A stretch of 62,947 bases of DNA, counting the filler, from an uncultured Clostridia bacterium (GTDB lineage: Bacteria; CAYTYR01; UBA6262): assembly GCA_964441745.1 (NCBI GenBank). It is 5 parts of 4 records of this genome, joined end to end, with 100 filler letters (N's around TTAATTAATTAA, not from the genome) between each part and the next. Parts side by side here need not be neighbours in the genome. Positions count along the whole stretch, not along the records: positions 1 to 22,511 come from CAYTYR010000003.1; 4 more parts are not named here. One strand, written 5' to 3'. Within the stretch, counting starts at the first letter, position 1. The number at the start of each line of letters is the position of its first letter. This document shows positions 2,928 to 62,473 of this stretch, piece after piece. Below the pieces are notes generated by a model. The model did no database searches. It worked only from the letters and a program-made list of their open reading frames with translations, and had not been told where the DNA came from. The translations under genes were made by a program, and so were the position numbers.

Positions 2928-5900
2928 TTAGAGTCTCTGCAAGATATTTCTTAAAATTCCCCGGGATCCCTTTTTCACTACCAGCGTAAACGGCGGTCCG
3001 GCCAGGAAACTCACCTCTCCGGGAAACCGTTTGGCTAATTGCACTAAAGCGGTTCCCTCAACCTTTGTTTGGGGATGGAAAATGAATTCCCAATGGTCTT
3101 CCTGTTCGTTGATTTCCTCGATCAGCAATCCCTGGCACAAGACGCGCAACTCGATGATTTCGATCAGGTTCAGTACTTCCAGAGGCAACGGGCCATAACG
3201 ATCCTTGATCTCACCCTGGATTTCCTGCAGTTCAGCGAGATTGTTCACCTGTGAAAGCTTTTTATATATTTCCATCCGGGATAGTTCGTCACCAATATAG
3301 GGTACTGGCAAATAGGCTTTGATCCGCAGGTTTATACTAGGGGTAATGGCAATCTCTTTTTCCTGTCCTTTCAAGCGCTGGATATTCTCCTGCAAAAGCT
3401 TGCAATACAAGTCGAATCCCACCTTGGAAATATAGCCGCTTTGCTCCTTACCCAGTAAGTTCCCGGCGCCGCGCAATTCCAGATCCCGCATGGCTATTTT
3501 GAAACCAGAACCAAGCTGGGTAAATTCCTGAATGGCTTTGAGCCGTGCCGCCGCATCCTGGGTAAAGATAAAATTCCCGGGATAGAAGAAATAGCTATAA
3601 GCCCGGCGGCTAGACCGGCCCACTCTGCCCCGCAACTGGTACAGGTCAGCCAGTCCGAATCTCGTGGCATCATCCACGATCAAGGTGTTGACATTGGGCA
3701 TATCCAGGCCTGACTCAATGATGGTGGTAGCGACGATCACATCAAATTTCCTGGCCACAAAATCAAGCATGATCTTTTCCAGTTCGCGGGAATTCATCTG
3801 GCCATGAGCTACTTTGATCCTAGCTTCTGGCACCAATTCGGTTAATTTTTTAGCGCACCGGTCGATAGACTGGACCCGGTTATGCACATAAAACACCTGT
3901 CCGGAACGGGAGATTTCATGGAGAATAGCCTGGCGGAGAACTTCGTCATTATGTTCCATTACATATGTTGAGACCGGTAAACGTCCTTCTGGGGGATTAT
4001 TGATCAAACTGACATCCCGGATACCGCTCAAAGACATTTCCAGTGTCCGGGGAATAGGAGTCGCCGTCAGGGTCAAGACATGCACATTCCGGCAGAGCTG
4101 TTTTATCCTTTCCTTATGGCTTACCCCAAACCGCTGTTCTTCATCCACCACCAGCAGGCCCAGGTCCTTGAATTTAATATCTTTTTGCAGCAAGCGATGG
4201 GTCCCGATAATTATATCCACCAAGCCTTTCCCCAGGTCTTTGATCACCTGGTCATGTTCTGCTTTACTGCGGAACCGGGACAGCATTTCCACGCGCACCG
4301 GGTAATCAGCCAGCCGTTCCCGGAAGGTATTCAGGTGCTGTTCAGCCAAAATAGTAGTCGGGACCAGCACTGCTACCTGCTTATTATTGTTCACGGCTAC
4401 AAAAGCGGCCCGCATGGCCACTTCGGTCTTGCCATAGCCGACATCGCCACAGACTAAACGATCCATTGGTTTTTTCCCGGACATATCATTTTTCACAGCC
4501 TGGATAGCCTGCCTTTGATCCGGGGTTTCTTCATAAATAAAAGCGGCTTCAAATTCCTGCTGCCAGTGGGTATCAGTGTTAAAAGCCTGGCCCTCAATAA
4601 TGGACCGCTCACTGTATAAACCCAATAATTCTTTGGCCAGCTGCAAGGTCGATTCCTGGACCTGTTCCTTGACCCTCTGCCAGGTATTACCACCCAAACG
4701 GTACATTTTAAGCCTGGCGATACCGGGATGAGCTCCGGCGGAAACATATTTTTGTACCAAATTCATTTGTTCTACCGGTACATAGAGGCGGTCGCCTTCA
4801 GCATACTTTAGGGACAAAAAATCTTCTTCTTTGTTCCCGATCACCAGGCGCTGGATCCCTTCGTAGACACCAACACCATATGTTTCATGCACAATATAAT
4901 CATGCTCTTTCAGGTCAGCAAATGGATTTAAGGACAAGGTCGCCGGTTTTTTTATTTTGGCCAAATATTTGCGTTCCAGGTACCGGCCGAAGATCTCTTC
5001 ATCGCTGACTACCGCTAATTTTAAGGCGGTTGATTCAAATCCGCCGGAAATAACCCCGATTTGCATGCGGCAAAAATCAGCATCTGCCGTCAGCAGTTCT
5101 TGCAAGCGTTGTTGTTGCCCGGCATTATCAGCAATCAGGGTCACCGCATATCCCTGGCTGCGCCACTGTTTCAGCCTTTCCCTCAACCGGGGGATAGAAC
5201 CATGAAAGCTTTCCATCGGTTGAAAATCAAAAGACTGCGTTTGCGGCGAGCAGGTCAAAGTTAAGGATAATTCCTGGGCCAGGAAATCTGGCGGCAATCC
5301 TTCCAGGGGTTTCAATAATTCATTTTTGATCAGGATACTATCTGCTTGAAAAATCGACCACAGTGGAGAGTTCGTATTGTCTGAACGTAAAGGCAGGACC
5401 GCGATCTTTTCCAGGGTATTTACTGACCGCTGGGTAAAACTTTCAAATTGCCGCAGGCTTTCCAGCAGATCGCCGTTGAATTCGAGCCGGACAGGATGAT
5501 CGGTCAACGGTATAAAGATATCGATGATCCCGCCACGGACAGAAAACTCACCAGGCCTTTCCACAAAAGGAGTGCGCTGGTATCCGGCAGCTACCAAATT
5601 AGCGGTAAGTTTTTTTAAGTCAATGGTTTGCCCGGCAGTTAAAGAGAAGCGCAATTGTTCGTATTGCGGTAAAGGAATAATGGACTGGGACAGTGCTTCG
5701 CGGCTGATCACACAAAAAAAACTGGTCTTACTCCTGATGGCTTCCAGTAATTGCAGATAACCGTATTCATCATCCAAAAAAATATTCACTTCTTCAGGAC
5801 CGGCAAAAAGAAGCAGGTCTTCATAGAATTTCAGGCTGGGCTCTTCCTCCCCGGCAATGAGCAGGGGACGACCTAGCTGTCGCCCAAGGGCCTGGGCGAA

Positions 5901-6023
5901 AAGAGCTTTGCCCGCCCCGGCTAAACCGGTAACTTCAGGCTTCTGATGAGCCTGCACAGCAGCCAGGATAGCTGCAAAAGCCGGCTGGCTATTAAAAATA
6001 GTAGCGCTGGATAAATCTTTCAT
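2928..6023 (-). CDS. mfd: Transcription-repair coupling factor
   Basis: UvrB-homology RGGIIDIF, CarD/RID domain, GDVGYGKT, DEEQRFG, TATPIPRT, QLRGRVGR, TRCF C-terminus. Start placed at ATG 6023 (MKDLSS) because the longer ORF reads through a repeat. Confidence 0.96.
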   Translation of the reverse strand: MKDLSSATIFNSQPAFAAILAAVQAHQKPEVTGLAGAGKALFAQALGRQLGRPLLIAGEEEPSLKFYEDLLLFAGPEEVNIFLDDEYGYLQLLEAIRSKTSFFCVISREALSQSIIPLPQYEQLRFSLTAGQTIDLKKLTANLVAAGYQRTPFVERPGEFSVRGGIIDIFIPLTDHPVRLEFNGDLLESLRQFESFTQRSVNTLEKIAVLPLRSDNTNSPLWSIFQADSILIKNELLKPLEGLPPDFLAQELSLTLTCSPQTQSFDFQPMESFHGSIPRLRERLKQWRSQGYAVTLIADNAGQQQRLQELLTADADFCRMQIGVISGGFESTALKLAVVSDEEIFGRYLERKYLAKIKKPATLSLNPFADLKEHDYIVHETYGVGVYEGIQRLVIGNKEEDFLSLKYAEGDRLYVPVEQMNLVQKYVSAGAHPGIARLKMYRLGGNTWQRVKEQVQESTLQLAKELLGLYSERSIIEGQAFNTDTHWQQEFEAAFIYEETPDQRQAIQAVKNDMSGKKPMDRLVCGDVGYGKTEVAMRAAFVAVNNNKQVAVLVPTTILAEQHLNTFRERLADYPVRVEMLSRFRSKAEHDQVIKDLGKGLVDIIIGTHRLLQKDIKFKDLGLLVVDEEQRFGVSHKERIKQLCRNVHVLTLTATPIPRTLEMSLSGIRDVSLINNPPEGRLPVSTYVMEHNDEVLRQAILHEISRSGQVFYVHNRVQSIDRCAKKLTELVPEARIKVAHGQMNSRELEKIMLDFVARKFDVIVATTIIESGLDMPNVNTLIVDDATRFGLADLYQLRGRVGRSSRRAYSYFFYPGNFIFTQDAAARLKAIQEFTQLGSGFKIAMRDLELRGAGNLLGKEQSGYISKVGFDLYCKLLQENIQRLKGQEKEIAITPSINLRIKAYLPVPYIGDELSRMEIYKKLSQVNNLAELQEIQGEIKDRYGPLPLEVLNLIEIIELRVLCQGLLIEEINEQEDHWEFIFHPQTKVEGTALVQLAKRFPGEVSFLAGPPFTLVVKKGSRGILRNILQRL

Positions 6024-6055
6024 TAGACTATGGCTCTTAGCTCTTTCTTGGAAAT
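6023..6055. repeat. att-like direct repeat (displaced copy of the fadD 3' end)
   Basis: TTAGACTATGGCTCTTAGCTCTTTCTTGGAAAT, identical to 14087-14119; imperfect similarity continues ~18 bp. Confidence 0.92.
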
Positions 6056-6090
6056 CTTCCCGATGGCGGTTTTCAAGGCGCAAAAACATA

Positions 6091-6252
6091 GCCTCACTAG
6101 CTCGCTGCGCTGATTTCGAAAAACGCATTGTTTTCCTCGGCGAGGAAAATGTACTCAATTCTCGCTTGAGTTCCCCAAAGTACGGGATAAAGAGTCCCTG
6201 CCAACTCAAGCATCCGTAGGTTTTATATACGGCATCACCGGCCGCGCTCGGC
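6091..6252. repeat. ~160-bp structured dispersed repeat, copy 1
   Basis: Shares blocks ACTCAATTCTCGCTTGAGTTCCCC, GGGATAAAGAGTCC, TGCCAACTCAAGC and CGGCCGCGCTCGGC with 62295-62451. Confidence 0.88.
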
Positions 6253-6293
6253 CTTTCAGATTGCGGTGAAATGTCCTTTTATTCTTTAAAATA

Positions 6294-6734
6294 TTAGTTA
6301 CCTATCGAAAATCTAAGAGCCTTAGATATTTTATCTTTTCTTCCAGCATTAATAACCCCATCTCCAGAATGAATACAATTAGAAATTCCTATTAAATTTG
6401 CTGACGCTTCTTCAATATTATCCTTTTCTGGTACTATGTTAAGTAAAGCGAATAATCTATACCAATAAATTGCATTGCTCCTTGCGATCAGAGTACTCGC
6501 ATGTTCCCTTAAAATTAATTGTATTTTATCCAATTCATCCCTTGCGCCAGTCCCTGGATTAGTATATATATTTGCATAAAAGACTAGAGCATTGCTAACG
6601 TTTTCAATACATTTAGCTAGATTTTGTATTGGATCAATAAAAAACTTAGATACTAATTGACCAATAGTATATACTAAAACACTTCCGATAATTGTAAGAG
6701 AAGACATTAAAACTATTTTATAAAATTCATTCAT
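6294..6734 (-). CDS. Hypothetical protein with N-terminal transmembrane helix
   Basis: 146-aa ORF with GAGG RBS, co-oriented last gene of the island. Confidence 0.7.
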   Translation of the reverse strand: MNEFYKIVLMSSLTIIGSVLVYTIGQLVSKFFIDPIQNLAKCIENVSNALVFYANIYTNPGTGARDELDKIQLILREHASTLIARSNAIYWYRLFALLNIVPEKDNIEEASANLIGISNCIHSGDGVINAGRKDKISKALRFSIGN

Positions 6735-6810
6735 AAATCACCTCATCGATATAAACATTTACTTTGGGGACATTATTCTCATTACAAATTAAAGAAACCC
6801 GCCCTCATAT

Positions 6811-8346
6811 TTATTTGATTTGCCTTAATTTGCTTACTAACTCAGCTACTTCCTTGCCTTTTTGCTCAATTATATCTAGCAATTCCTCAGGCGTACGAGT
6901 ATCTATTACTGTTTTGATATTAGGATTAACAGCTTTAAGATCAAAGTTGTTTTCTTCAATTATAGCTCTGGTTACGGTCCAACTTCGTTCGCTATCTGCT
7001 CTTTTAGGTAATAGCCTAAAGAATTCTTCAAATTGAGCCAGAGTTAACGGCTTCTTTTTAGCTACTTTAATCCCTGATAAGTCGTAATACCAGATCTTCT
7101 CAGTAGATTTGCCTTTGGTGAAGAACACTATATTAGTTTTTACCCCTGCACCTGCTGATGTGAAAACTCCCGGAGGTAGACTTACTATGCACCAAACATC
7201 ACAATCATCCAATAATTTTCTTTTGGTTTGGACAAAAGCAGCCTCATTGTTCCTAAAAAGAATGCCCTCATCTAAGACAATTCCGCATCTGCCCCCAGAT
7301 TTCAGACTTGCTATGACATGCTGGAGGAAAAGGACCTGAGTTGAGCCTGTTTTATAGGCAAATCTGGTCTGTGCATCTTTACCTTCCTTCCCTCCAAACG
7401 GAGGATTCATAAGCATCACATCAAATAACGGCGGCGCTCCTTGAAATAAACCGCCATAGGTTTCAGCTCCGGTAAGTGTATTTCCATGCCATATATGAGG
7501 ATCGTCAATCCCGTGCAGGATTAAGTTCGCCAAAGCTATAGGATAAATTGCATTATCTTTCTCACGTCCAAAAAAAGTCTTTTCCTTTAAAGTTTCTAAT
7601 TGATCTGGCCCTTTAATCTTCTCGTTATTTTGCCCGGCCATATACTCAAACGATTGAGCAAGGAAACCACCTGTCCCGCAACCAGGGTCGTATATTGTCT
7701 CGCCGACTTTAGGATCAATGACTTTTACCATAGCACGGATTACTTCCCGCGGGGTAAAGAATTGCCCGCCATCATTACCTCTTTCACCCATTTTTAGGAG
7801 CAAGCCCTCATACACTTGGGAAAGTGGAAAGACATGAGTTGGATCAACATTGGCATGACTAATGTCATTAACCTTATCTAATATATCAAGAAAGTTCCGT
7901 TCCGTATCTATTCGGGTCCTCTCTACACCAGACATTATTTCGCTAATTACTTTCTGCCTAGTTGTAGCATTAGGCCTTTCCCGTAGTTTCTTAAGATATG
8001 GGATTAACTCGCTATTAATAAAACCGAAAAATGCTCCTAAAGCTGCGTTTTGCAATTCAAGCCGCTTTTTGCCATTAGGTTCGGCCCAATCTTGCCAGCG
8101 ATATGGGGCAGTAAGTGAAGGTGAATATTCATGGCCTACTGCTTTTGCTTCTTCTTGTTCACGTATTTCTTTCTCATCAAGTATACGAAGGAAAAGAATC
8201 CAAGTTAATTCTGGAACATATTGCAATGCCCCAGCGCAGTTTGATCTGCGCATAATATCGCAGATAGATTTAACTACAGTATTTACTGATTGCTGTGTAG
8301 ATAATTTTTTACCATTGCCCTTATTAACATGTATAACTTTTGTCAT
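6811..8346 (-). CDS. hsdM: Type I RM N6-adenine methyltransferase subunit
   Basis: GQFFTPR, DPGCGTGGFL, NPPF motifs; start ATG 8346 just after the hsdS stop. Confidence 0.95.
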   Translation of the reverse strand: MTKVIHVNKGNGKKLSTQQSVNTVVKSICDIMRRSNCAGALQYVPELTWILFLRILDEKEIREQEEAKAVGHEYSPSLTAPYRWQDWAEPNGKKRLELQNAALGAFFGFINSELIPYLKKLRERPNATTRQKVISEIMSGVERTRIDTERNFLDILDKVNDISHANVDPTHVFPLSQVYEGLLLKMGERGNDGGQFFTPREVIRAMVKVIDPKVGETIYDPGCGTGGFLAQSFEYMAGQNNEKIKGPDQLETLKEKTFFGREKDNAIYPIALANLILHGIDDPHIWHGNTLTGAETYGGLFQGAPPLFDVMLMNPPFGGKEGKDAQTRFAYKTGSTQVLFLQHVIASLKSGGRCGIVLDEGILFRNNEAAFVQTKRKLLDDCDVWCIVSLPPGVFTSAGAGVKTNIVFFTKGKSTEKIWYYDLSGIKVAKKKPLTLAQFEEFFRLLPKRADSERSWTVTRAIIEENNFDLKAVNPNIKTVIDTRTPEELLDIIEQKGKEVAELVSKLRQIK

Positions 8347-8347
8347 T

Positions 8348-9559
8348 TTATAATTCTCCATTAAATGCTCGTTGCAATACTGCCAAAGCAAGAGTCCCAA
8401 TTAAATTTGGTTGTTCTTCCATATTCTTTATTAGTTCTTTTGATTCTTCTAGCTTTTCTCTTAGTTTCATGCTTATTAATTGCTGTTCATCAAGAGATGG
8501 TATAGGAATTTGTTGCTCAAGAACCTGTTTATCAGTAACCGCCGGATAAAGTGCTCCTTTAACTAAACTGGATAATCGTTCTATAAAATCACTATTTTGG
8601 GTATATAGGAAAAGGTAGCGGCTGTCTAAATTTGCTTTAGGCCGGAGGACACAAAAACCCGTACTACAGATTTGATTACTAAATTCGTTAGATATCAATG
8701 CAACAGCATTAAGATTAGGACGCGTCGTAGAAAGAATCACATCGCCTGAATAAACAACCTGACGAGCTCTACTGGGAGCATTAATACCAAGCAATATTTG
8801 TGGAGTAGTGATTATTTTCCGTTTATTATCAATACTTGATATATCAATATAAATAAATTCTTTAGTTGGCTCAATTCGTGGGTCTCTTGTTGCTATGTTC
8901 TTTTCACATACTTCACCCAACTTCTTCTTTGGCCATTTTTGGGCTTTGGGGCTATTAAAAACCTGACGAAGATAGGCACTGGGTAAAGATTTGGCAGCTT
9001 CTATTTGTGTCTCGCAAGCAGCTTTGGCTTTTGCTACAGAGGACATTTGGGTTTGGAGAATAGAAGCAATGCGTTTTTGATCAGATAAGTGAGGGAGCAT
9101 AATTTCTAAATTCGCCAATTGTGAAAACCTTAGATTCTGTATGTTTGCACCGCGTGCCTGTGTATCTCGCCAAGCAAAGTAGTTTGGCGATTTAAACCAA
9201 AATCCCATATAATCTGCAAAGATGGTTTCTTTTGGCCGCACAATTCCACAAAATGCACCAACAGAACCTTCCCAATCTTCCTTTAATTGTGCAGTTTTAC
9301 CAACAACCAATGGGCTGCCAGATGACATACAGATTACTATATCTCCCTGCCTTAGATGTTGCTCATTTGCAACCTTATTTTCCATTACCCATATTAAATC
9401 ACTTTCCAAATCCAACTTGGATGCAATATTACCAGCTCGTAGAATAGGCAAGTACTTTGGTAAAGACGTTGTGCTAATTTCTGATTTGTCAAAACTCACA
9501 CCTCTAATAAACTTGCACAGTCCACCAAGTTTAACTTTCTTCCAATCTTGAGCTGTCAT
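8348..9559 (-). CDS. hsdS: Type I RM specificity subunit (two TRDs)
   Basis: W..VKLGGLC / WPKKKLGEVC repeats, PHLSDQKRI / PSLDEQQLI, C-terminal LQRAFNGEL. Confidence 0.93.
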   Translation of the reverse strand: MTAQDWKKVKLGGLCKFIRGVSFDKSEISTTSLPKYLPILRAGNIASKLDLESDLIWVMENKVANEQHLRQGDIVICMSSGSPLVVGKTAQLKEDWEGSVGAFCGIVRPKETIFADYMGFWFKSPNYFAWRDTQARGANIQNLRFSQLANLEIMLPHLSDQKRIASILQTQMSSVAKAKAACETQIEAAKSLPSAYLRQVFNSPKAQKWPKKKLGEVCEKNIATRDPRIEPTKEFIYIDISSIDNKRKIITTPQILLGINAPSRARQVVYSGDVILSTTRPNLNAVALISNEFSNQICSTGFCVLRPKANLDSRYLFLYTQNSDFIERLSSLVKGALYPAVTDKQVLEQQIPIPSLDEQQLISMKLREKLEESKELIKNMEEQPNLIGTLALAVLQRAFNGEL

Positions 9560-11928
9560 GCAGCAAATATCCTCTCTTTTGTTTCGGTGAGAACGCGTGA
9601 TGGGTCATCGTGTAGTCGCAAAGCTTCTAAACCACCAGCCCTGACTACTTCGGGTACCTGGAAGATATGTGGGTTTTCTAAGCTTTCGGTTCCGTTATTG
9701 GCAAATTGGCTTGCGAGCGCTTTTACAGTGTTTGAGGTTTGCGCTGGCATATTTTTCAACCATTCTTCATGCTTATAAGTAAATGCATCTACTCGATCAA
9801 TTCTTGTTTTTGGAATCGAGCCATAGCCTATTTCTGCCAAGACATCATATAAATCATAGCTTCCCATGTCTTCTAATGCACGAATAAGAATTGCTGATCG
9901 TCCCCCATCTGGTAGATGTTCTATAAGCTCCCCTCTTTCTTGAGGTATTATCCAGTGTTTCCTGAATTCATTTATTGTAGGAGCTTCTTCTACTAATTTG
10001 GCTGCCAGCTTCTCCTTGTATTCTTCTACGGTTACAGGCATGGCTCTACCATCTACCATTGTCAATATATACCGGCCTGCATCGGTAATTCTCACGTCAA
10101 AGCCTTTAACATTAATAATAGGTTCCGGCGGTAGAGGTTCAGTCCCTGGCCCAGCTGTAGTTCCTGGACCGTATTTTGTTTTGAAATCTTCGCCAAATAG
10201 TCTCGTAGCGTTGGTATAATCGTAAATTCTGAACATTAGTTTATTTGAAGGTGGATCAAGCCGTGTGCCACGGCCAACCATTTGGTAAAAAGCTATCGGA
10301 GAACGAACATACTTAAAGAATACAATATTGCGCACTACAGGAACATCGACTCCTGTTGATAATAAATCAACTGTGGTAGCAATAAAATGAGACCGGGAAG
10401 CTCCTCGTAAATCAGCTAGGTATTGATTACCATCTACACTGGCAGTGCATTTGAAAGCATATGGTTCAAGTCTTTGACAATTATTCTTATTACACCAGTC
10501 GGCATAGAGATTATTCAGAGTGACAGCTACTGCATCTGCATGCCTATCCCTAACGCAAAATATGATTGTTTTTTGCTCTGGGCCGCCAGTGTCTAATAAG
10601 AACTGAAAGAGGTCACTACACATTGCAAAAACCCTATCAGGTAATAGGATTTTATCTTCGAAGTCTGCCTTTCCATAAACAGGACGGATGTCTGTTTGAT
10701 GCACTGATTCTCCTGTATTAGCATCGGTTGGCTGACGCGATATTATATCGTCTATCTTAATGCCAGTTTCATCAAGATTTACCCTACCCTTTTGAATTTC
10801 GCAAGCAGCTAAATAGCCATCTTCGATACCTTGTGCCATGTCGTATTCGTATACAGGTTCCCCAAAGTGTCGTAAATTATCAGCGTTTATCTGTTCATCT
10901 ATTTGTGTTTCTTTGGTTTTTTCGGTGACCTTTAATTGTCTTGGGGTCGCAGTGAGGCCTATTTGAACTGCCTGTGGATTCCTTTTTAACACTTCTGACC
11001 ACTTACCCCAGGCAGAACGATGGCATTCGTCAATAATAATATGTGAAAAATAGTTCTCCGGATAAAATGTAGTTAGAAAATTAGCAGTCCCGTCATCATT
11101 ATCTACATCCAATGTTTGATATGTAGCTATGTGAATTCTGGCGTTCTTGGCATTATTAGTGCCATCAGGTTTCTTATATACTTCGGCAGCGTCAGTGCCA
11201 AATACATTCTGAAAAACGCCAAGACCTTGTGATCGTAGTTCATCTCTGTCGCATATAAAAAGTGCTCGTTTCAAGAGACCCGCTTCACCTATTTTCTTGA
11301 GCAGATGTACTGCGATGAAGGTTTTTCCAGCTCCTGTAGCCAAAGATAGCAAAGCTCTCTTTAGCTGACCGGACTGCTCGCTCTTGGCTATTTTCTCAAG
11401 GACAGCCCTAATGGCAGCATCTTGATAATAGCGCCTAGTAGCCTCTCCACCTGGATATGGAATTAGTAACGGCTTTGCTACTGGATCTGTGAGCTTGAAT
11501 CCATGATGTTTTTCGTATCTGCTTTGAAGTTCGTCAGGAGTTGGGAATTCAGTTAATTGCTTTGGAGAGCTCGTTTTCCCAGTTAAGCTGTCATATTCTA
11601 CAAAGAGATGACCATTCGTAGAGAATACAAATGGTACATTCAATCTTTTACAATCAGCATATAGTTTCGCTTGTTCAAGTCCATGTGCTGGTGGTAAATG
11701 CTCTGCTTTTGCTTCTATAATGGCTACAGATAATGCCTGAGTACCGATATTTATCTTGATTCTCAGCAAATAGTCTACTTTGCCTTTAGACCGCTTTTTA
11801 GGCTTACCTTCAATAATTTCTATGGCGCCAGCTGTTTCCTCGCGCTTGATAAGCTCTTCTGTCCAACCCCGTTTGTGGATAGTTGGATCAATTAGCTTTG
11901 CCCTAGTATCTGCCTCATTAAATGTCAT
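9556..11928 (-). CDS. hsdR: Type I RM restriction subunit (EcoAI/EcoEI-like)
   Basis: NEADTR, D..IIEAK nuclease, YYQ, LATGAGKT, DECHRS, GLTATP, QMVGRGTR. Confidence 0.94.
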   Translation of the reverse strand: MTFNEADTRAKLIDPTIHKRGWTEELIKREETAGAIEIIEGKPKKRSKGKVDYLLRIKINIGTQALSVAIIEAKAEHLPPAHGLEQAKLYADCKRLNVPFVFSTNGHLFVEYDSLTGKTSSPKQLTEFPTPDELQSRYEKHHGFKLTDPVAKPLLIPYPGGEATRRYYQDAAIRAVLEKIAKSEQSGQLKRALLSLATGAGKTFIAVHLLKKIGEAGLLKRALFICDRDELRSQGLGVFQNVFGTDAAEVYKKPDGTNNAKNARIHIATYQTLDVDNDDGTANFLTTFYPENYFSHIIIDECHRSAWGKWSEVLKRNPQAVQIGLTATPRQLKVTEKTKETQIDEQINADNLRHFGEPVYEYDMAQGIEDGYLAACEIQKGRVNLDETGIKIDDIISRQPTDANTGESVHQTDIRPVYGKADFEDKILLPDRVFAMCSDLFQFLLDTGGPEQKTIIFCVRDRHADAVAVTLNNLYADWCNKNNCQRLEPYAFKCTASVDGNQYLADLRGASRSHFIATTVDLLSTGVDVPVVRNIVFFKYVRSPIAFYQMVGRGTRLDPPSNKLMFRIYDYTNATRLFGEDFKTKYGPGTTAGPGTEPLPPEPIINVKGFDVRITDAGRYILTMVDGRAMPVTVEEYKEKLAAKLVEEAPTINEFRKHWIIPQERGELIEHLPDGGRSAILIRALEDMGSYDLYDVLAEIGYGSIPKTRIDRVDAFTYKHEEWLKNMPAQTSNTVKALASQFANNGTESLENPHIFQVPEVVRAGGLEALRLHDDPSRVLTETKERIFAA

Positions 11929-11931
11929 GTC

Positions 11932-12774
11932 TTATTCCTTTAATTGTGCTGCAATTATAATATTTGCTTCTCTAATAGCCCTATTTATAAACATCTCTTC
12001 CTCGTCTTTATCAACTGCCAATTTTTCTGTGCGTATATGTTCTCTATAAAGTTGAATCCCTGGAGAGTTCTTATCCCTATAATATTTCTGCAGTATATTT
12101 TTGGAGCGTTCCTTTAAATCCACATATGAGCCAAATTGTTCCCAAAACAACACAGAGAATCCTTTCTTTCCGATATTAGAATGAATAATGTTTATAATAT
12201 CCCCTGAGTGGATACTTGCTTTGTTAAGATCGTGCTTATATTCTTCCGGGCCTCTAATATTATTATATCTATCGTCCAAGGCGAAGAGCTTAAACATAAC
12301 TAATGCTTGCGGGAGAATTATGCGTATAGTTGCTTCTGCTGCCGTCCCATTCGGAAGAGTTCCTTTAATCACTTGGCAAAAAGATTCTTTTAAAGCAATT
12401 TCAGCTCCAAGGCAATCCCGTGCATGTAATCCTTCTTGGATTCTTACTCTTTTGTCTTTATTAATCCTGTCTTGCTCACTTCCCATAAATTCAATTCTCA
12501 TTATTTCTTTGCTATTTGGTAAGGTTTTTATAAATTGAAAGTTCTTGGCTTCTGGAACGACGCCATAACCCAATCTGGCTAGAATTTCTGCAACCTTTTG
12601 AGACTTTTCTCTTAATGAATAGACATCAAGAACAAAATCAAAATCTATAGTTGGCCGTACTTTTTCAACCATAAAATGAATGGCTTGCCCCCCGGCTAGT
12701 ACAAAATCACTGGCCAAATCCCCTAATTCAATTAATAATTCAAGCAAGTATGCTTTTTGTGGCTCTTTAATCAT
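11932..12774 (-). CDS. abiEii: AbiEii-type nucleotidyltransferase toxin (type IV TA)
   Basis: VLAGGQA..RPTIDFDF polbeta-like motif, FKLFAL..R...D; overlaps the upstream antitoxin stop. Confidence 0.75.
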   Translation of the reverse strand: MIKEPQKAYLLELLIELGDLASDFVLAGGQAIHFMVEKVRPTIDFDFVLDVYSLREKSQKVAEILARLGYGVVPEAKNFQFIKTLPNSKEIMRIEFMGSEQDRINKDKRVRIQEGLHARDCLGAEIALKESFCQVIKGTLPNGTAAEATIRIILPQALVMFKLFALDDRYNNIRGPEEYKHDLNKASIHSGDIINIIHSNIGKKGFSVLFWEQFGSYVDLKERSKNILQKYYRDKNSPGIQLYREHIRTEKLAVDKDEEEMFINRAIREANIIIAAQLKE

Positions 12775-13912
12775 TTCCCGACCATCTCTTTTTAATGACA
12801 TTCTCTAAAACATATTCAGCTTGTTTTAGCTCTCTGCCTCCTTTGGAGTAGCAATCTAAATATATTTGAATATCCGAAGCAATACGCATTCCGTCCATTT
12901 CCTTGGAATACATAAATACACCTTCATCAGAGGGATAATAGAGCTCAAACCCTGGCCCTATACTCTGTCTTAAGGGATCTATTATTTCAGGTATCTCCCA
13001 ATTGTTTTTATTAATAACATAAAGCATAATTTTATCTATTTCTAAATACGGGGCAACTATATTAGCAGCTGTTGACCCCATTAAAATAGAGTTCGCAAAA
13101 TCAGGAAGCTCAGTTATTAATTGTTTAACAGCATTCGTTACATTTGTTCCATATGGATTATTACTAAAGGAGAACTTCTTACTTACTCTTTTATTCATCT
13201 CTTTATATTTGTCTGCCCATTTAAAAAGCAACAGTTTGGGATCGGCAACTATTATTTCTCTTTGATCTCGCCTAATAAGTAATTCCTCTTCTAATGACTT
13301 TGTGGTCTTAGAAATAGAGGCAAGGCTTAGTTTAAAATCCACCTTTTGAATATCTGATTCCATATTAAGTTCTTTCTCTATTTCTGAAATACTCCATTTT
13401 CTTTTAGGATCTTGCAAAAGAACACGTAAAACCCTAGACGAAGCGCCCCAGAATGGATTTCTTAAAATCTGCTTCGTTGGGAATTTATTTTGCTGTCCTA
13501 TTCGTTGAATCATGATTTTACCAGGCACACTGATAAATATGTTTCCAGATAAATCTATGAAGTTAATCCCGTTTTTGAGACAGTAATTTTGGCTATTAGT
13601 TGTTAGATAGGGAGTTATAAGCACATAGATTTCTTTAGGGCTGGATTTCTTTTGGCGTACAAACATTGGGGTAATCTGATCCAGAAGCTTTGGAGTAACC
13701 TGATTCTTTATTTCTCCGTAAAGAGTAATTGGTATACCTGAAAAATCCATCTTAAGTTCAATATCAGATTGCATTGACGGAATATTAGTACAATACAGGT
13801 TATTATTAATGCTATTATAAGATTCAGCAAATATATTAGAGAGTCTAATACCCCCTAGGCCTTCAAATAGATTTTTTTGTTTAAGCTGTTCAATTATCTC
13901 TTGTTCCTTCAT
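12767..13912 (-). CDS. abiEi: AbiEi-family antitoxin / transcriptional regulator
   Basis: NFIDLSGN, wHTH (SRVLRVLL..SLASISKTTKSLEEE), C-terminal ASDIQIYLD...GR...QAE. Confidence 0.75.
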   Translation of the reverse strand: MKEQEIIEQLKQKNLFEGLGGIRLSNIFAESYNSINNNLYCTNIPSMQSDIELKMDFSGIPITLYGEIKNQVTPKLLDQITPMFVRQKKSSPKEIYVLITPYLTTNSQNYCLKNGINFIDLSGNIFISVPGKIMIQRIGQQNKFPTKQILRNPFWGASSRVLRVLLQDPKRKWSISEIEKELNMESDIQKVDFKLSLASISKTTKSLEEELLIRRDQREIIVADPKLLLFKWADKYKEMNKRVSKKFSFSNNPYGTNVTNAVKQLITELPDFANSILMGSTAANIVAPYLEIDKIMLYVINKNNWEIPEIIDPLRQSIGPGFELYYPSDEGVFMYSKEMDGMRIASDIQIYLDCYSKGGRELKQAEYVLENVIKKRWSGND

Positions 13913-13933
13913 AGGTTACCTCAAATATACTTG

Positions 13934-14046
13934 TATTTTCCTCTACAGCATTAATATATCATGTAATAAAACATCTGTCAAGAGGAAATATTTCTTTATA
14001 ACTACTATTTTACTAAATAGTAAATAATACAATTAGAGGAAATATT
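13934..14046 (-). promoter_or_regulatory. sigma70-type promoter of the island operon with AGAGGAAA operator-like boxes
   Basis: Minus strand TTGACA(13981-13976)-17-TATATT(13958-13953). AGAGGAAATATT occurs at 13981 and 14035, with inverted TTTCCTCT at 13937. Confidence 0.6.
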
Positions 14047-14086
14047 ACATCTGGTAATTAGAGAACATAGTGGATTTTCATATATT

Positions 14087-14119
14087 TTAGACTATGGCTC
14101 TTAGCTCTTTCTTGGAAAT
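14087..14119. repeat. att-like direct repeat (functional fadD 3' end)
   Basis: Identical to 6023-6055; encodes ISKKELRAIV-stop. Confidence 0.92.
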
Positions 14120-15625
14120 TTTGCCGGTGGCGGTCTTGGGCAGGGCTGCCGAAAAACGGATCAGGCGGGGAACTTTATAATTAGCCAAATGGGCCCGGCA
14201 GTAATGGGTAAGTTCTTTGGCCGACAATACTTGATTTTCCTTCAGTACGACAAAAGCTACCGGTATTTCACCATGATGTTCATCTTTCTTACCGATCACG
14301 GCAGTTTCCAATACCTGGGGATGGGAGAGGATAACATCCTCTACCTCCCGCGAGTACACATTCATACCATGCACCAGGATCATATCTTTCTTGCGGTCAC
14401 AGATATAGAGATAGCCATCCTGGTTCACCCGTCCCATATCTCCGGTAAAAAGCCAGCCGCCCCTAAAGGTTTGGGCGGTCAGTTCCGGGGCATTATAATA
14501 TCCCTGCATGATATTGGGGCCGCGTACCGTGATCTCCCCTACTTCATTAGTTCCTAATTCTTTCCCGTTTTCATCGACTATCGCTACCTTAATACCCGGT
14601 AATGGCTTGCCGATGGAACCAGGCCGGCGGACATCAGACACAGGGCTAATACTAACCACGGGCGAAGCTTCTGATAAACCATATCCCTCAATTAAAGGTA
14701 TTTTAAATCTTCTTTCAAATCCTGCCTGGACCTCTGGCGGTAGTGGCGCCCCGCCGGAGACACATAAACGCAGCGGTAACATCCAAAAAAAGAAAAAGGA
14801 CGGTATTTTGGCTCTTAATAACAGTTTATAGACTAAAGGGATAGAGACAAAAATGGTAATGCGATCCAGCGCCAGGCTCTTAATCACCCGGTGAAAGGGC
14901 ATCACTGATTCCAAAATAACAGTTTTTGCTCCCAGGGAAAGAGGCAAAAGAACGCAAACGGTAAAACTAAAAGCATGAAACATCGGCAGGAATAAGATAA
15001 AGCAATCGTTTTCTTTAAGCTCGATCGCTTTAGCACAGCTATGGATATTGGACAACAGGTTATCATGAGTAAGCATGGCTCCTTTAGGATATCCTGTGGT
15101 CCCCGAGGTATAGAGAATCACCGCCAGGTCGTCTTTTTGTCCAGACAGCACCGGCCAATTGATAGCTTGAGGCTTGACCAGCTCTGGCCAGGAAAGCAGG
15201 CCCGGTTCTTTTTTGCCGATACAGATAAGATCAAGAGTTGCCGTATAAAGAGACCTGATCTTTTTTACAGTCGGCAAGAATTTTTCCGCGGTGATCAACA
15301 GTTTAATCTGGCAATCTTGACAAATATAGACTAATTCTTCTGCCGTCAGGAAAGTATTGAGCGGCACTACTACGGCGCCGGATTCCAGGCAGGCAAAATA
15401 AGCAATAACATATTCTGGGCAATTTTTCAGTAAAATGCCAACTCGCTCGCCTTTGGCCAAATGGGCCTGTTGCTGCAAGTTAACAGCCAGCGTATTTACC
15501 TGCCGATATAATTGCTGATAGGTAATATTCTTACCTTGGTATTTAAGAGCGACCCTATTCGGGATCCTCAGGCTTGCTGACCTGACGATCCCTGGCAAGG
15601 TAGTCATGCAGTCCATCCTTTTCAT
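14087..15625 (-). CDS. fadD: Long-chain-fatty-acid--CoA ligase
   Basis: YTSGTTGYPKG AMP-binding motif, EGYGLSE, TGDMG, RKKDMI, LPKTATGKI. Confidence 0.92.
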   Translation of the reverse strand: MKRMDCMTTLPGIVRSASLRIPNRVALKYQGKNITYQQLYRQVNTLAVNLQQQAHLAKGERVGILLKNCPEYVIAYFACLESGAVVVPLNTFLTAEELVYICQDCQIKLLITAEKFLPTVKKIRSLYTATLDLICIGKKEPGLLSWPELVKPQAINWPVLSGQKDDLAVILYTSGTTGYPKGAMLTHDNLLSNIHSCAKAIELKENDCFILFLPMFHAFSFTVCVLLPLSLGAKTVILESVMPFHRVIKSLALDRITIFVSIPLVYKLLLRAKIPSFFFFWMLPLRLCVSGGAPLPPEVQAGFERRFKIPLIEGYGLSEASPVVSISPVSDVRRPGSIGKPLPGIKVAIVDENGKELGTNEVGEITVRGPNIMQGYYNAPELTAQTFRGGWLFTGDMGRVNQDGYLYICDRKKDMILVHGMNVYSREVEDVILSHPQVLETAVIGKKDEHHGEIPVAFVVLKENQVLSAKELTHYCRAHLANYKVPRLIRFSAALPKTATGKISKKELRAIV

Positions 15626-22511: not shown

Positions 22512-22611
22512 NNNNNNNNNNNNNNNNNNNNNNNNNNNNNNNNNNNNNNNNNNNNTTAATTAATTAANNNNNNNNNNNNNNNNNNNNNNNNNNNNNNNNN
22601 NNNNNNNNNNN
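22512..22611. other. Artificial contig linker
   Basis: N44-TTAATTAATTAA-N44, six-frame stop spacer. Confidence 0.98.
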
Positions 22612-25687: not shown

Positions 25688-27965
25688 CAATGAGCTTTTG
25701 AACAATGTGCTTAGATTTTATCAGGAGACCTTCAGAAAACACAAACAGGGTGGGGAATACCTGCAATCAGTAGGGATTTACGATGAGCAGCTTTCCGAAA
25801 GGTTTAAAATCGGATTTTCTAACGGTTCACTCCTAAAGACAATCCCCAGCAAGGGCGAAGTGCGGGAGAAATTGGCAGAGCTTGGCATATTAACCAAAGA
25901 CGGGATAGAATATTTCCAGGATTGCATAATCTTTCCGATAATCAACCAAGATGACGACATTGTAGACATGCTGGGGATTAGAATCACCAGCGGAGAAATA
26001 CTAATTTTGAACAATCCCGTATCTGGCATCTTCAACTGGCAGGCGTTCAAGAGTAAGGAGATCATCTTTACCGCTGGGATAATCGAAGCCCTGCGGATTA
26101 TCCAGCTTGGCTTTGACAACGTGATCCCGCTATTACAAGGATTAAACGATCATCACATAGATTTTCTTAAAAGATACCGGTCAGAAAAGATTTATTTAGC
26201 TTTAGAAGATGAAAACGTGAAAAACCAGCTTAGTAAACTTGATTTTGCCTGTCATAGTGTCCAGTTTCCGGCAAAGCCGACCAAACCGGAAATTGAGCAA
26301 TCCTTAAAACAAGCGGAGCCGATAGCTGTAAGAATCGGCGAGGGGATTGCCAAGATAACCGATGAAAAAGTCCTTTTTGAATTTGGCCAGCGCAAGTATG
26401 ACGTTAGACAATTAGACGACATTAACAAAGACAGATTGAGAGTATCCATTAAAGCCCAAGCCGAGCCGCTCTTTCACATAGACACTATAGACTTGTATTC
26501 TTCCCGAAGCCGGACCAGTTTTATCCGGTGCGTCTCCAAACTCTACGACGTGGCTGATACGGTTATAGAAAGTGACCTTTGCTCAGTTATCACCAAAATG
26601 GAAAAGATCAGAGAAAACAGGGAAATCAAAAGCAGGCAAGATCAGGAAAAGGGCTACCAGATGACTATAGATGAAGAGACCGAAGCATTGGAATTTCTCA
26701 AATACCCCGATATTCTGAATCAAGTGGCCCAGCACTTGGAAATAATGGGTTACGTGGGCGAAGAAACCAATAAAAAACTTGGGTATCTTATCACTATTAG
26801 CCGGAAATTAGATGATCCATTATCAGGAGTGATCATTTCTCGAAGCGGAGCCGGAAAATCAAAACTGATGGACTATTTGGCCGATTTTGTGCCGGAAGAA
26901 GACATGATCAAATACACCCGTTTGACGCCCCAAGCCCTGTATTATCAAGGAGCAAGAAGCTTAAAGCATAAACTGTTGATAGCTGGCGAAGAAGAAGGAC
27001 TAACCGGCACAGATTATCCGATCAGGGAACTAATCTCTTCCAAAAAGCTAAAACTTGGTTCACCGGTTAAGGATCCAATATCCGGCAAGATGAAAACGGT
27101 TGAATATGAAGTTGAAGGGCCAATTTCCTTGCTCTTTTCTACTACCAAGGCGGCCATTAACTATGAGAATGCTTCCAGATGTTTCACCCTGTCCTTAGAC
27201 GAAAGCGACGGACAGACCGAAAAAATACAGGCAGCACAGAGAGAAAAACGAATGCTCTTAGGGACAAAGAATAAACTGGAAGGAAGAGAGGTAAAGAATC
27301 TTCATAAGAATTGCCAGAGATTACTAAAGAAATTGGAAGTGGTTAATCCTTACGCTGATCGTTTAACCTTTCCGAGCTCTTGGATTGAGACCAGAAGGGA
27401 GCATGACAAATACCTATCCCTTATAGACGCAATCGCCTTTCTTCATCAATACCAGCGGGAAATCAAGAAATTCAATCATCATGGCAGAGAGATTGAATAT
27501 ATCGAAGTGGAACCGCAGGATATAGCGGAAGCGAATAAGCTAATCTCTGAAATCCTGGGAACCAGTCTTGACGAACTTTCCCGCCCTTCAAAGGAATTGC
27601 TGAAAATGATCAAGCAAATGGTAGATGAGAAATGCAAAGAATTGGAGATCAACCAGAAAGACTTCCGCTTTAACCGCAGAGACATCAGGGAATACACTGG
27701 CTGGAGCGATAGCCAGATCAAAGCGCATATCAAGAAACTGGAAGATTTGCAATATCTCATCTTAGCCAAAGGAGACCGTGGCCGAATGTACCGCTACGAA
27801 CTCCAATATGAAGGCAACAGGCATAAAAGGCACTTCTTCGGCCTGACCGATCCGCTGAAGCTTGAACACCTGCCCCCCGAAGTTTTAACAAATGGGGGAA
27901 AGTCTGTAAAGTCTGGTATGGTCTGGTCAAAACAAAAAGCAATGGGGTCAGGCACTGAATCGTGA
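25674..27965 (+). CDS. Mobile-element primase-like (degenerate Toprim) / P-loop ATPase fusion
   Basis: DnaG-core-like YL..GI...FKIGF...EYF..CIIFP, Walker A SRSGAGKS, LTPQALYY, VEGP, SRCF..DES, C-terminal wHTH; ends inside the transposase inverted repeat. Confidence 0.8.
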   Translation: MIINSNELLNNVLRFYQETFRKHKQGGEYLQSVGIYDEQLSERFKIGFSNGSLLKTIPSKGEVREKLAELGILTKDGIEYFQDCIIFPIINQDDDIVDMLGIRITSGEILILNNPVSGIFNWQAFKSKEIIFTAGIIEALRIIQLGFDNVIPLLQGLNDHHIDFLKRYRSEKIYLALEDENVKNQLSKLDFACHSVQFPAKPTKPEIEQSLKQAEPIAVRIGEGIAKITDEKVLFEFGQRKYDVRQLDDINKDRLRVSIKAQAEPLFHIDTIDLYSSRSRTSFIRCVSKLYDVADTVIESDLCSVITKMEKIRENREIKSRQDQEKGYQMTIDEETEALEFLKYPDILNQVAQHLEIMGYVGEETNKKLGYLITISRKLDDPLSGVIISRSGAGKSKLMDYLADFVPEEDMIKYTRLTPQALYYQGARSLKHKLLIAGEEEGLTGTDYPIRELISSKKLKLGSPVKDPISGKMKTVEYEVEGPISLLFSTTKAAINYENASRCFTLSLDESDGQTEKIQAAQREKRMLLGTKNKLEGREVKNLHKNCQRLLKKLEVVNPYADRLTFPSSWIETRREHDKYLSLIDAIAFLHQYQREIKKFNHHGREIEYIEVEPQDIAEANKLISEILGTSLDELSRPSKELLKMIKQMVDEKCKELEINQKDFRFNRRDIREYTGWSDSQIKAHIKKLEDLQYLILAKGDRGRMYRYELQYEGNRHKRHFFGLTDPLKLEHLPPEVLTNGGKSVKSGMVWSKQKAMGSGTES

Positions 27966-28006
27966 AACAGATTGACAATAAACTGATTATTGGATAGGAT
28001 TAACGC

Positions 28007-28954
28007 ATGGCTAGGCCCTATCGACTGCAAGGCGAAAACTATTTTTATCATATCACCAGCCGGGGAGATGACCGGAAGAAGATCTTTATCAGTGATTATG
28101 ATTACCGTAAATTCTTGGATTATCTGCATAAAGCCAAGAAGAAACATAACTTTTACCTCTATGCCTATGTATTAATGAGCAACCATTATCACCTGCTAAT
28201 AGAAACTACTAAGCCAAATATCTCTAAAATAATGCAAAATGTGAATTCTGCCTATACCACCTATTACAATATCAAACGGCATAAATACGGGCATGTCTTT
28301 CAAGGCAGGTATAAATCTATTCTAGTGGATAAGGACAGTTATCTTTTGGAGTTGACCAGATATATTCATCTGAACCCGGTAAGAGCCGGGATGGTTAAAA
28401 AGCCAGAGGAATACCAGTGGTCTAGCTATAAAGGATATCTCACCAAAGAAGGAGACGGATATATCGACAAGGCGCAGATCAGCCAGGTAATCTCTCTAGA
28501 CGCAATGAGTTATCGTGAATTTATAAAAGAAGGAATAAATCATAAGGCAGATCCATTCAAGGAAGTCTATGGCGGGTTTATCTTAGGCCGGACCAAGTTT
28601 ATCAAAGAAAAGCTGAAGGAGCTGAAAGAGCAGGTCGCCAGCGGCAATTATGCTGATCAGGGGAGAATTGTCGGACACATAGGGAGAGAAGAAATAGCTG
28701 GGGTAATAGCCCGGGAATATGGCAAAGAGCTGGAAGAATTGAGGCACCTGAAAAACAGGCCGGCCAAAGAGAGAAACTTAGCTATCTATTTGATGAAAAG
28801 GGTGTCAGCGCTCAGCAATATTGAAATAAGTAAATATTTTAATTTATCAAGCACGGCGGTGAGTAAAGTGGTGGGAAAGGTGGAACGGGAAATGGTGGAG
28901 AAGAAGCACTTGAGAACTGAAGTTGAGCAACTTCTTTCACGTTTCAGTGCCTGA
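28007..28954 (+). CDS. REP-associated tyrosine transposase (IS200-like Y1) with C-terminal DnaA_C/TrpR-like HTH
   Basis: YHITSRG, MSNHYHLL (HUH), GHVFQGRYKS, YIHLNPVRAG, WSSY; C-terminal RNLAIYL...EISKYFNLSSTAVS. Confidence 0.92.
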   Translation: MARPYRLQGENYFYHITSRGDDRKKIFISDYDYRKFLDYLHKAKKKHNFYLYAYVLMSNHYHLLIETTKPNISKIMQNVNSAYTTYYNIKRHKYGHVFQGRYKSILVDKDSYLLELTRYIHLNPVRAGMVKKPEEYQWSSYKGYLTKEGDGYIDKAQISQVISLDAMSYREFIKEGINHKADPFKEVYGGFILGRTKFIKEKLKELKEQVASGNYADQGRIVGHIGREEIAGVIAREYGKELEELRHLKNRPAKERNLAIYLMKRVSALSNIEISKYFNLSSTAVSKVVGKVEREMVEKKHLRTEVEQLLSRFSA

Positions 28955-29046
28955 CCCCATTGTTTACGTTTTGACCCCATTGTTTACGTTTCAGTGCCTG
29001 ACCCCATTGTTTATGTGACCCCATTGTTTATGACCCCATTGTTTTA
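28952..29046 (+). repeat. Five tandem TGACCCCATTGTTT(A) copies of the element end
   Basis: Copies start at 28952, 28972, 28999, 29016 and 29031. Confidence 0.92.
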
Positions 29047-29353
29047 TTTTTTATTATTAATTAATAACCATTTTCCACCTACGCGGTGGAAAGTTGGGTT
29101 AAGGACAAAAAAGCGCTTGACAGAAGGGTCTTTATCAGGCATATTTTATTCATACAGAATTACATATATAAAGCCACGTAATTTCTGGTTGTGCCCTCCA
29201 CCAAGCTTGGCGGTTAGAGCTGGATGTTAGGTTGCCATAAGTAAGAGAATACTGGCAGCCTTTTTTGGTATAAAGACGATTACCCGCCAAAAAGATCGGC
29301 GGGCACGGCACAAATTATAAACCAGATTACACAGATTAGAGAAGAGGAAGTAG

Positions 29354-41311: not shown

Positions 41312-41411
41312 NNNNNNNNNNNNNNNNNNNNNNNNNNNNNNNNNNNNNNNNNNNNTTAATTAATTAANNNNNNNNNNNNNNNNNNNNNNNNNNNNNNNNN
41401 NNNNNNNNNNN
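41312..41411. other. Artificial contig linker
   Basis: N-TTAATTAATTAA-N. Confidence 0.98.
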
Positions 41412-47581: not shown

Positions 47582-47796
47582 CAGATTTTTTGCTTGACTT
47601 TATCACCAGGATGCATTAGAAGTATTACAATGTATAAAGGGTTCGGGGATCTTCTTCTCCGAAGGTAACAAAATATAGGTGGTCGGGCCGCCATCTGGGA
47701 AATTATCCAGAGGCGATTTATTTTGCCGGTATTGGATAGATTCCATTTACCGGCATTTACTATTAGAAACAACAAAAAATAAAAGGAGGCAGTATC

Positions 47797-51911: not shown

Positions 51912-52481
51912 ATGAAAAAGATCTTAGTAGCAATGTTAGCAGTTCTCGTAATGGCAAGTGCAGCTTTGGCCGCTGATACCAAGACCGTCAATCTGTCAGC
52001 CACTATCCCGTCACAGAGCTCCCTGAATGTCACCATCAGCAAAGTGGTAGGCACAGTCTTCACTACCGCTACATCAGTAGCGTTCGGTTCCTTGGTTTTG
52101 GATCCTACTTACAACATTTTTAAGACCTCAGATGGCAGTTACTATGCGGTTGATTGTGGTATTAACTCTAATGCTACTGCTTGGACCGTCACCCATGCCA
52201 TCACTTCAATGACTAACGGCACAGCTAATTTGAACAACATGATCAACGTAACTTTCATGAATCAGCAGACCGCTGCCGCTGCGACCCAGATTTCTAAAGT
52301 TTCCTATGCAGCCAGCAACGGCACAGTTATCAGCAAATCCCAGATCACTGCTGGCGGTTGGTTGAGAATCTATTACGGTTTAGCTACTGGTTCAGGCGAC
52401 GCTGCTGGCGTAGTCGTAATTCCAGCTACACAAGCTAGCGGTTCATATGCCGGCACAGTAACCTTGACTCTCGCTCCGTAA
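51912..52481 (+). CDS. Major pilin-like / WxL-like secreted subunit A
   Basis: Strong RBS, signal peptide, N-terminal alternating strand DTKTVNLSATIP, C-terminal GSYAGTVTLTL. Confidence 0.65.
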   Translation: MKKILVAMLAVLVMASAALAADTKTVNLSATIPSQSSLNVTISKVVGTVFTTATSVAFGSLVLDPTYNIFKTSDGSYYAVDCGINSNATAWTVTHAITSMTNGTANLNNMINVTFMNQQTAAAATQISKVSYAASNGTVISKSQITAGGWLRIYYGLATGSGDAAGVVVIPATQASGSYAGTVTLTLAP

Positions 52482-58096: not shown

Positions 58097-58196
58097 NNNN
58101 NNNNNNNNNNNNNNNNNNNNNNNNNNNNNNNNNNNNNNNNTTAATTAATTAANNNNNNNNNNNNNNNNNNNNNNNNNNNNNNNNNNNNNNNNNNNN
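58097..58196. other. Artificial contig linker
   Basis: N-TTAATTAATTAA-N. Confidence 0.98.
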
Positions 58197-60949: not shown

Positions 60950-61049
60950 NNNNNNNNNNNNNNNNNNNNNNNNNNNNNNNNNNNNNNNNNNNNTTAATTA
61001 ATTAANNNNNNNNNNNNNNNNNNNNNNNNNNNNNNNNNNNNNNNNNNNN
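60950..61049. other. Artificial contig linker
   Basis: N-TTAATTAATTAA-N. Confidence 0.98.
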
Positions 61050-62217: not shown

Positions 62218-62294
62218 TGGTTGATTGTCCGCTCCGATCTGTGATCGGAGCTCGTAGTTGATCGAAAAAGCTTTTTCTATCATCCATTAATTAC

Positions 62295-62451
62295 GCCTCG
62301 CTGTCACGCTGCGTCGTTCCGAAAAGCGTGTCGTTTTCCCCTGCGAGGAAAACGCACTCAATTCTCGCTTGAGTTCCCCTACGGGGATAAAGAGTCCATG
62401 CCAACTCAAGCTCCGAACGTTTTCTACACGACATCAGCGGCCGCGCTCGGC
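62295..62451. repeat. ~160-bp structured dispersed repeat, copy 2
   Basis: Colinear homology to 6091-6252. Confidence 0.88.
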
Positions 62452-62473
62452 TAATGAATAGAGTGAGGGATTA

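Follow-up and report, generated by a model that had tools for sequence, protein, structure and literature searches.

Module A, a dispersed structured repeat behind stop codons of housekeeping genes in a narrow clade of uncultured bacteria

The repeat described here, termed module A, belongs to a family that is dispersed in a narrow clade of uncultured bacteria. Orthologous sites have gained and lost it, and it usually begins 0-31 nt past the stop codon of a housekeeping gene on the same strand, also in operon interiors. Its two ends are predicted to pair into a long stem around two hairpins, and comparison of the copies shows this arrangement to be maintained by compensatory changes. The simplest account is that module A is an intergenic repeat family new to Rfam, of the REP/BOX/ERIC kind. 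We see about an even chance that it is a ~160-nt module among lineage-specific mobile structured intergenic repeats that acts in 3'-UTRs, and not an attC-like capture site.

Two copies of module A in the window

The window, i.e. the whole stretch of 62,947 nt that was analysed from an uncultured Clostridia bacterium (GCA_964441745.1), consists of five contigs joined by runs of N (22512-22611, 41312-41411, 58097-58196 and 60950-61049). A preliminary description had pointed to two look-alike repeats on different contigs, and BLASTN together with the map of the N runs confirms them. The copies, W1 and W2 (Table 1), are 82% identical over 162 nt (E 1e-39), and a BLASTN search of the window with either copy returns just its partner and no third copy. 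The exact blocks of 24, 14, 13 and 14 nt that had been listed are indeed common to both, as are the hairpins TTTTCC..GGAAAA and GCTTGAGTT/AACTCAAGC, and AATGTCCTTT follows on the 3' side of each, at 6270-6279 (17 nt past W1) and at 62473-62482 (21 nt past W2). The similarity includes about 30 nt past module A, up to an ATG; in W1, the ATG at 6271 opens an 8-codon stub ORF that matches the start of the nuclease gene behind W2. The spacer that follows W2 appears to resemble the outer end of R2, the terminal repeat of the small element MITE-B that is described below. W1 is decayed and lies antisense relative to both neighbour genes.

Table 1. Coordinates of module A copies and associated features in the window
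Feature	Position	Strand	Basis
Acyl-CoA ligase gene, final 51 nt, displaced copy	6023..6073	-	repeat D9, 92%
8.0-kb low-GC insertion missing from sister genomes	6074..14086	.	
Module A copy W1	6091..6252	+	covariance model R1, 149 bits, 8 non-canonical pairs; BLAST
3' extension common to W1 and W2	6253..6297	+	sequence, flank comparison
Second 51-nt copy, the genuine 3' end of the ligase gene	14087..14137	-	
Separate short hairpin repeat between UPF0047 stop codon and junction 62273/62274	62219..62265	+	
Module A copy W2, intact	62295..62451	+	covariance model R1, 188 bits, every pair standard
Helices of W2	P1 62295-62317 with 62428-62451; P2 62326-62357; P3 62367-62411	+	
Spacer apparently resembling the outer end of MITE-B terminal repeat R2	62452..62473	+	by-eye flank comparison
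PDDEXK_4 nuclease gene, cut by contig end	62474..62947	+	Pfam 4.9e-11

For this window, the described order of core gene on the left and cargo on the right holds true, with mfd and the UPF0047 gene on one side and, on the other, a low-GC type I restriction-modification system (GC 0.33) and the PDDEXK_4 gene (GC 0.30). It is also correct that the first copy lies beside an att-like duplication, as W1 is 17 nt away from a 51-nt direct duplication whose copies are 92% identical. Both copies moreover lie just inside DNA that is missing from sister genomes, 17-21 nt from its border.

In the sister genomes, the stop codon of the ligase gene and the start codon of mfd overlap and the 51-nt segment occurs once, and therefore the DNA between the two window copies of this segment is an insertion with a 51-nt flanking duplication. 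In the window, it is the stop codon of the displaced ligase segment that overlaps the mfd start codon, at 6021-6023. The insertion contains W1, which starts 17 nt inside it, a 146-aa ORF, hsdM, hsdS, hsdR and two further ORFs, and searches with Pfam, NCBIfam and PADLOC found no integrase in this island. For the island ORFs at 11932-13912 (289 and 381 aa), neither Pfam nor NCBIfam gives a match; the first bears a weak resemblance to AbiEii (PADLOC E 9e-4), and together they may form a diverged AbiE module.

At the second site, the UPF0047 gene is directly followed by nadC in four sister genomes, one of which is 98% identical to the window up to 62273. Because nadC stands at this position in the sister genomes, W2 starts 21 nt inside an insertion with its junction at 62273/62274. 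This junction is spanned by a contig that the same study obtained from a second sample, and the far end of the insertion lies beyond the contig end. The PDDEXK_4 gene, which is similar to the PADLOC candidate PDC-S26 (7.7e-10), is strain-specific, with homologues in 0/60 relatives and none beside other module A copies in the loci searched.

Some further features of the window are recorded here. The short hairpin repeat in front of the W2 junction (CCGCTCCGATC..GATCGGAGC; query 62220-62262) has matches elsewhere in all five sister genomes searched, and a similar hairpin, CCGCCACTAAAGCGTTGGCGG, sits inside some module A copies. The last contig (61050-62273) is 98% identical to genome G002 and the mfd region (5300-6073) is 76% identical to G002 and 83% identical to G005; the draft is possibly a mixture of strains or species. 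At 47639-47696 lies an nhaA-I RNA motif (Rfam RF03057; 43.4 bits, gathering score 37), and a 300-nt direct repeat (51960-52259 and 52716-53015) has 68% identity between its copies, which are 756 nt apart.

Fold of module A

RNAalifold, applied to a MAFFT alignment, predicts a closing stem P1 that is formed by the two ends of the module (18 pairs, with bulges), a hairpin P2, and P3, which is a long hairpin with an internal loop. In this alignment, 97.9% of the cells are standard pairs and 13 of the 42 pairs are compensatory, versus 5.9±1.2 in shuffles (0/500), and slid controls with the partners moved by 1-3 columns leave 33-43% paired. The alignment of 28 copies (A3), which was fitted to the model and leans towards structure, is 98.1% paired with 20/42 compensatory pairs versus 7.2±1.1 in shuffles (0/500), where the compensatory cells count sequences and not independent events. 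The folding energy of individual copies is unremarkable (z -0.45 to -2.6), and it is the covariation across 28 copies, not the folding energy, that establishes the structure and bears out the conserved hairpin fold that had been proposed from W1 and W2. The diverged copies of G006 (145 bits) and G007 (57 bits) rebuild P1 and P3 with other sequence and at the same time keep the P2 sequence as well as the loop motifs. The motifs CGAAAA and GTTTTC are present in 27/28 copies and TTTCC/GGAAA in all 28. An all-against-all covariation scan was noisy and yielded a single extra candidate pair (columns 100/181).

Which strand folds is indicated by the non-Watson-Crick pairs. One U·G pair is fixed in 27/27 copies and another pair is U·G in 9 copies; counted as cells, there are 43 G·U versus 13 A·C, but counted as sites just 9 versus 7. 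These pairs moderately favour the + strand as the folding strand.

An RNA switch had been considered possible, and an ACTCAA/TTGAGT pairing had been seen to compete with the second hairpin. This competing pairing is limited to 13/28 copies, and the switch is therefore unsupported. A CRISPR lead, which came from a P3 tip that we take to resemble the hairpin of type I-E CRISPR repeats, was dropped, as Cas1 is found in 0/5 genomes and the P3-tip motif is lost in G006 and G007.

Census and variants of the family

A pattern scan of contigs, with one genome per species, gave 17 loci, with 16 true copies distributed over 15 of them, and a pattern scan of metagenomes gave nine loci, four of them with true copies, which adds five more. 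A covariance model built from 22 copies was searched in 60 genomes related to G001 and matched six of them, with 9, 6, 5, 5, 1 and 1 copies; under strict filters, no module A was found in the remaining 54, which are draft genomes. The single copies are those of the more distant G006 and G007. Genomes of the clade are drafts of about 1.7-1.9 Mb. The survey by covariance model and BLASTN that the preliminary description had called for thus reveals a real and dispersed family with 1-9 copies per genome in 6/60 relatives.

Rfam contains no counterpart, in agreement with the suggestion that the repeat is undescribed there: at the gathering threshold, module A has no match in the whole window; around W1 and W2, nothing but a chance snoRNA hit (E 8.6) appears up to E 10; and three loci searched up to E 1 give no match. 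BLAST searches of phage and plasmid records likewise did not match module A.

The ends of the module are sharp, with G(G/C)CTC(G/A)CTG ... GCG(C/T)T(C/T)G(C/G)C in every copy that was aligned, and between them the module varies. A 28-nt hairpin can be inserted near the 5' side, P3 can be swapped for an unrelated hairpin, and short forms lack the inner helices. There are genome-specific subfamilies, and one site carries differing subfamilies (L001 versus L002). The copies are single and dispersed over the contigs, and the sole pair in direct orientation flanks trpE. In DNA sequencing runs, depth on module A is about ten-fold, and contigs break at its borders.

Placement relative to genes

ORFs were mapped around every copy and the neighbours were named with Pfam, which made the upstream side classifiable for 28 copies (six more, at contig ends or with ambiguous ORFs, were not). 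Module A is sense to the upstream gene in 22/28 copies and antisense in 6/28, W1 included; when orthologous sites are merged, 20/24 are co-oriented (binomial p 0.0008). Eighteen copies start within 31 nt of the upstream stop codon and 13 of them within 15 nt, and 0-19 nt separate the stop codon from the first paired base. Between trpE and trpG, module A even begins on the last base of the stop codon. The sequence immediately upstream of the copies is often TAR-GGTATAT.

The upstream genes include fusA, folD, trpE, hisI, cmk, priA, comEC, pgpA, suhB and nth as well as glycosyltransferase genes and a sigma factor gene. The genes on the downstream side, too, are for the most part housekeeping genes (trpG, xseA, xseB, polA), and others encode LemA, a LigD phosphoesterase and P-II; low-GC DNA follows in just 4-6 of 32 copies. 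A special tie to defence genes, as suggested by the two window copies, is not seen, since of the 26 copies that are not in the window, the majority have housekeeping genes on either side. The outcome comes close to the random scatter that had been named as the counter-evidence to such a tie, insofar as the sites are not defence-specific, yet the placement is stereotyped and not random.

Gain and loss at orthologous sites

Comparisons of filled and empty sites demonstrate gain and loss of module A. Between trpE and trpG, it is present in G001 and missing in G002 and G005. Behind comEC, the empty site in G002 and G003 has AAATAATACTTGA once, and the filled site in G001 has about 250 nt there, consisting of module A, a solo repeat end and a tail, flanked by a target duplication of 7-9 nt that includes the stop codon; the target site is AT-rich. 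An AbiE module lies beside comEC in all three of these genomes, in G002 and G003 without module A. The site downstream of pgpA (L115-L120) is an integration hot spot across five sister genomes. It holds a different insert in each of the five: module A with 2.2 kb of low-GC DNA in G002, 116 nt in G001, and toxin-antitoxin-like cassettes without module A in G005, G003 and G006. The folD-xseA and suhB-polA sites are similar patchworks, and at the latter a block of module A plus its neighbour is inverted between two genomes. In all five comparisons of filled with empty sites, module A comes first in the inserted DNA, 0-24 nt from the left junction, with inserts of about 0.2 to 8 kb. The duplications vary in length, from 7-9 nt at comEC to an imperfect ~15 nt at trpE-trpG and 51 nt at the 8-kb insert. 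No second module A or shared right-end motif was found to bound the inserts.

Could module A simply be an ordinary miniature transposon that is moved in trans by a DDE transposase and has no RNA role, with post-stop sites reflecting an AT-rich target preference plus purifying selection? The short duplication at the AT-rich comEC site, the presence and absence at orthologous sites, the genome-specific subfamilies with different ones at the same site, and the nesting with another small repeat would all agree with this. However, such an element needs its ends only, yet covariation extends to the internal helices P2 and P3, which G006 and G007 have rebuilt. The two ends of module A pair imperfectly and make a weak terminal inverted repeat, the duplication length is inconstant, and an autonomous element with the same ends was not found by BLAST and covariance model in six incomplete draft genomes, which gave short elements and variants only. 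The internal covariation disfavours a plain DDE-type miniature transposon, which we consider unlikely.

The other small repeat, MITE-B, is about 220 nt long with inverted ends GTATCAGTGAAC... (L023:1673-1899; related pieces in L021, L012 and L001). Each of four sister genomes contains at least 9-17 matches to it, and many of these lie apart from module A. In 10/27 copies, the distance between MITE-B and the 3' end of module A is exactly 10 nt, and the MITE-B terminal repeat alone, in either orientation, occurs within about 25 nt in 6-8 further copies (in total 16-18/27). This offset and these proximity counts indicate that the 3' flank of module A is a preferred landing site of MITE-B. Some insertion sequences land specifically in REPs, and the docking of MITE-B at a fixed 10 nt is a modest but clear example of a mobile element that targets another.

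Is module A a capture site?

The preliminary description proposed a folded-DNA recombination or capture site. In such a model, module A would recombine as folded single-stranded DNA in the manner of attC, REPIN or IS200, capture or mobilise cargo such as defence genes, and form the leading end of a cassette. This would account for the position next to the left junction in all five comparisons, for the low-GC cargo that, where present, is always 3' of module A (W1, W2, L028, L027), for the similarity of W1 and W2 that continues past the module into the start of a gene, and for the conserved fold with its paired ends. For an attC-like site in particular, however, the AAC/GTT core sites are missing. 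The absence of RYYYAAC/GTTRRRY ends, which the preliminary description had itself remarked upon, is confirmed, the module does not form arrays, and an integron integrase (TIGR02249) is above the cut-off in 0/5 genomes (best 77 bits versus 265). Membership among attC-like sites is thus not supported. Module A does lie directly 3' of an ORF, and its imperfectly pairing ends with bulged bases and its variable centre recall attC, but paired ends with extrahelical bases, here the 18 pairs of P1, are not attC-specific, and upstream of module A stand core genes in conserved synteny.

A REPIN/RAYT link fares no better. The sister genomes have 2-5 Y1_Tnp genes each, and RAYT-like genes do exist, but within ±1.5 kb of six of them there is no similarity to module A or to R2. 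The window itself has a RAYT-like Y1 transposase gene at ~28007-28807, which is 35% identical to one of a sister genome (region 27937-29051) and is flanked by 30-38-nt inverted repeats and five tandem TGACCCCATTGTTTACGTTT, unrelated to module A.

The remaining arguments against capture come from the sites themselves: inserts lack a second module A or a common right-end motif, the AbiE module beside comEC is present without module A in two genomes, the pgpA hot spot accepts cassettes without it in three genomes, and most copies have housekeeping genes on both sides. Altogether, a capture function of this kind seems quite improbable.

Alternatively, the copies could be a multi-copy family of stand-alone small RNA genes, trans-acting or protein-binding, for which the conserved loops, the covarying stems and the retention of one copy in the distant G006 and G007 might be cited. 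The locus is not conserved, however, as the sites in G006 (after fusA) and in G007 are unlike any in G001-G005. Truncated and module-swapped variants occur, no promoter or terminator signal was found, and with the first paired base so close past the stop codon there is no room for a promoter of its own. The probability of this interpretation is low.

Even lower is the probability that module A is the leading end of an integrase-less cassette system, in which an enzyme would recognise the fold and place DNA 3' of it. If this was true, the 3' cargo would range from MITE-B to kilobase toxin-antitoxin and restriction islands, and module A would provide a portable place for DNA to dock or be captured, from which defence islands would be seeded behind core genes.

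Comparison with known repeat families

Module A has the features of the REP/BOX/ERIC kind, as it is dispersed and intergenic, has a stable conserved fold and modular variants, and to judge from its gene context would lie within transcription units. Like REP and BIME elements, it is a structured repeat of probably transcribed intergenic regions that often lies just behind stop codons, as these elements do (PMC12306157). REPs are, in contrast, ~35-nt palindromes in hundreds of copies that are tied to RAYT, whereas module A is a 160-nt three-helix junction with at most 10 copies per genome (at most 9 found) and has no RAYT link.

BOX of Streptococcus pneumoniae and ERIC/IRU are modular hairpin-forming intergenic repeats within transcription units. 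With its swapped, inserted and deleted modules, module A is a modular mosaic of a similar type, but there is no sequence relation, and module A has one defined fold, conserved loops and a sense, stop-proximal placement.

Correia elements (CREE) and miniature transposons resemble module A in their length of 100-250 nt, the AT-rich target, the target duplication (one clean case for module A) and the co-transcription with neighbouring genes, which for module A is presumed; the 3' end of module A also has a possible outward promoter-like match, as in Correia elements. The differences are the weak inverted repeat, the variable duplication, the internal covariation and a partner transposase that was not found.

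A structured repeat that may act in 3'-UTRs

How might a mobile structured repeat of this kind act? Module A would be co-transcribed as a 3'-UTR or as intercistronic RNA, and may then serve as a stable 3' structure that shields the upstream mRNA, as REP elements do. REPs in 3'-UTRs are reported to influence the half-life of mRNAs, and those that lie within 15 nt of a stop codon to stall ribosomes (PMC12306157). As a stem base within 15 nt of the stop codon falls into the footprint of the terminating ribosome, module A may also couple to termination, translation or decay of the upstream gene. The position at two island borders would in this case be a by-product, because AT-rich post-stop sites act as hot spots for insertion and other mobile DNA is drawn to the 3' flank of module A.

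Several observations weigh against an action in 3'-UTRs. Six of the 28 copies are antisense to their neighbours, G·U is barely above A·C when counted by sites, and no terminator-like site is predicted at module A. In the one RNA run that was found (X11, available as contigs), parts of the neighbouring genes are represented but module A is not covered. The orientation bias could stem from a single-stranded-DNA mechanism that is tied to the direction of replication, and the internal covariation could serve mobility rather than a host function. The first position of module A in all five inserts and the ~30 nt that W1 and W2 share beyond it would also be predicted by a mobile unit led by module A, and an autonomous partner element was not found. 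The fold may thus instead serve mobility, as single-stranded DNA or as RNA.

The 20 covarying pairs make module A a well-supported addition to the structured repeat families, and it comes from a barely studied uncultured lineage. It also cautions against taking a repeat for a recombination site because it occurs at two island borders. With its sense, stop-proximal placement, module A is a testable candidate for a REP-like control of mRNA decay or translation outside enterobacteria.
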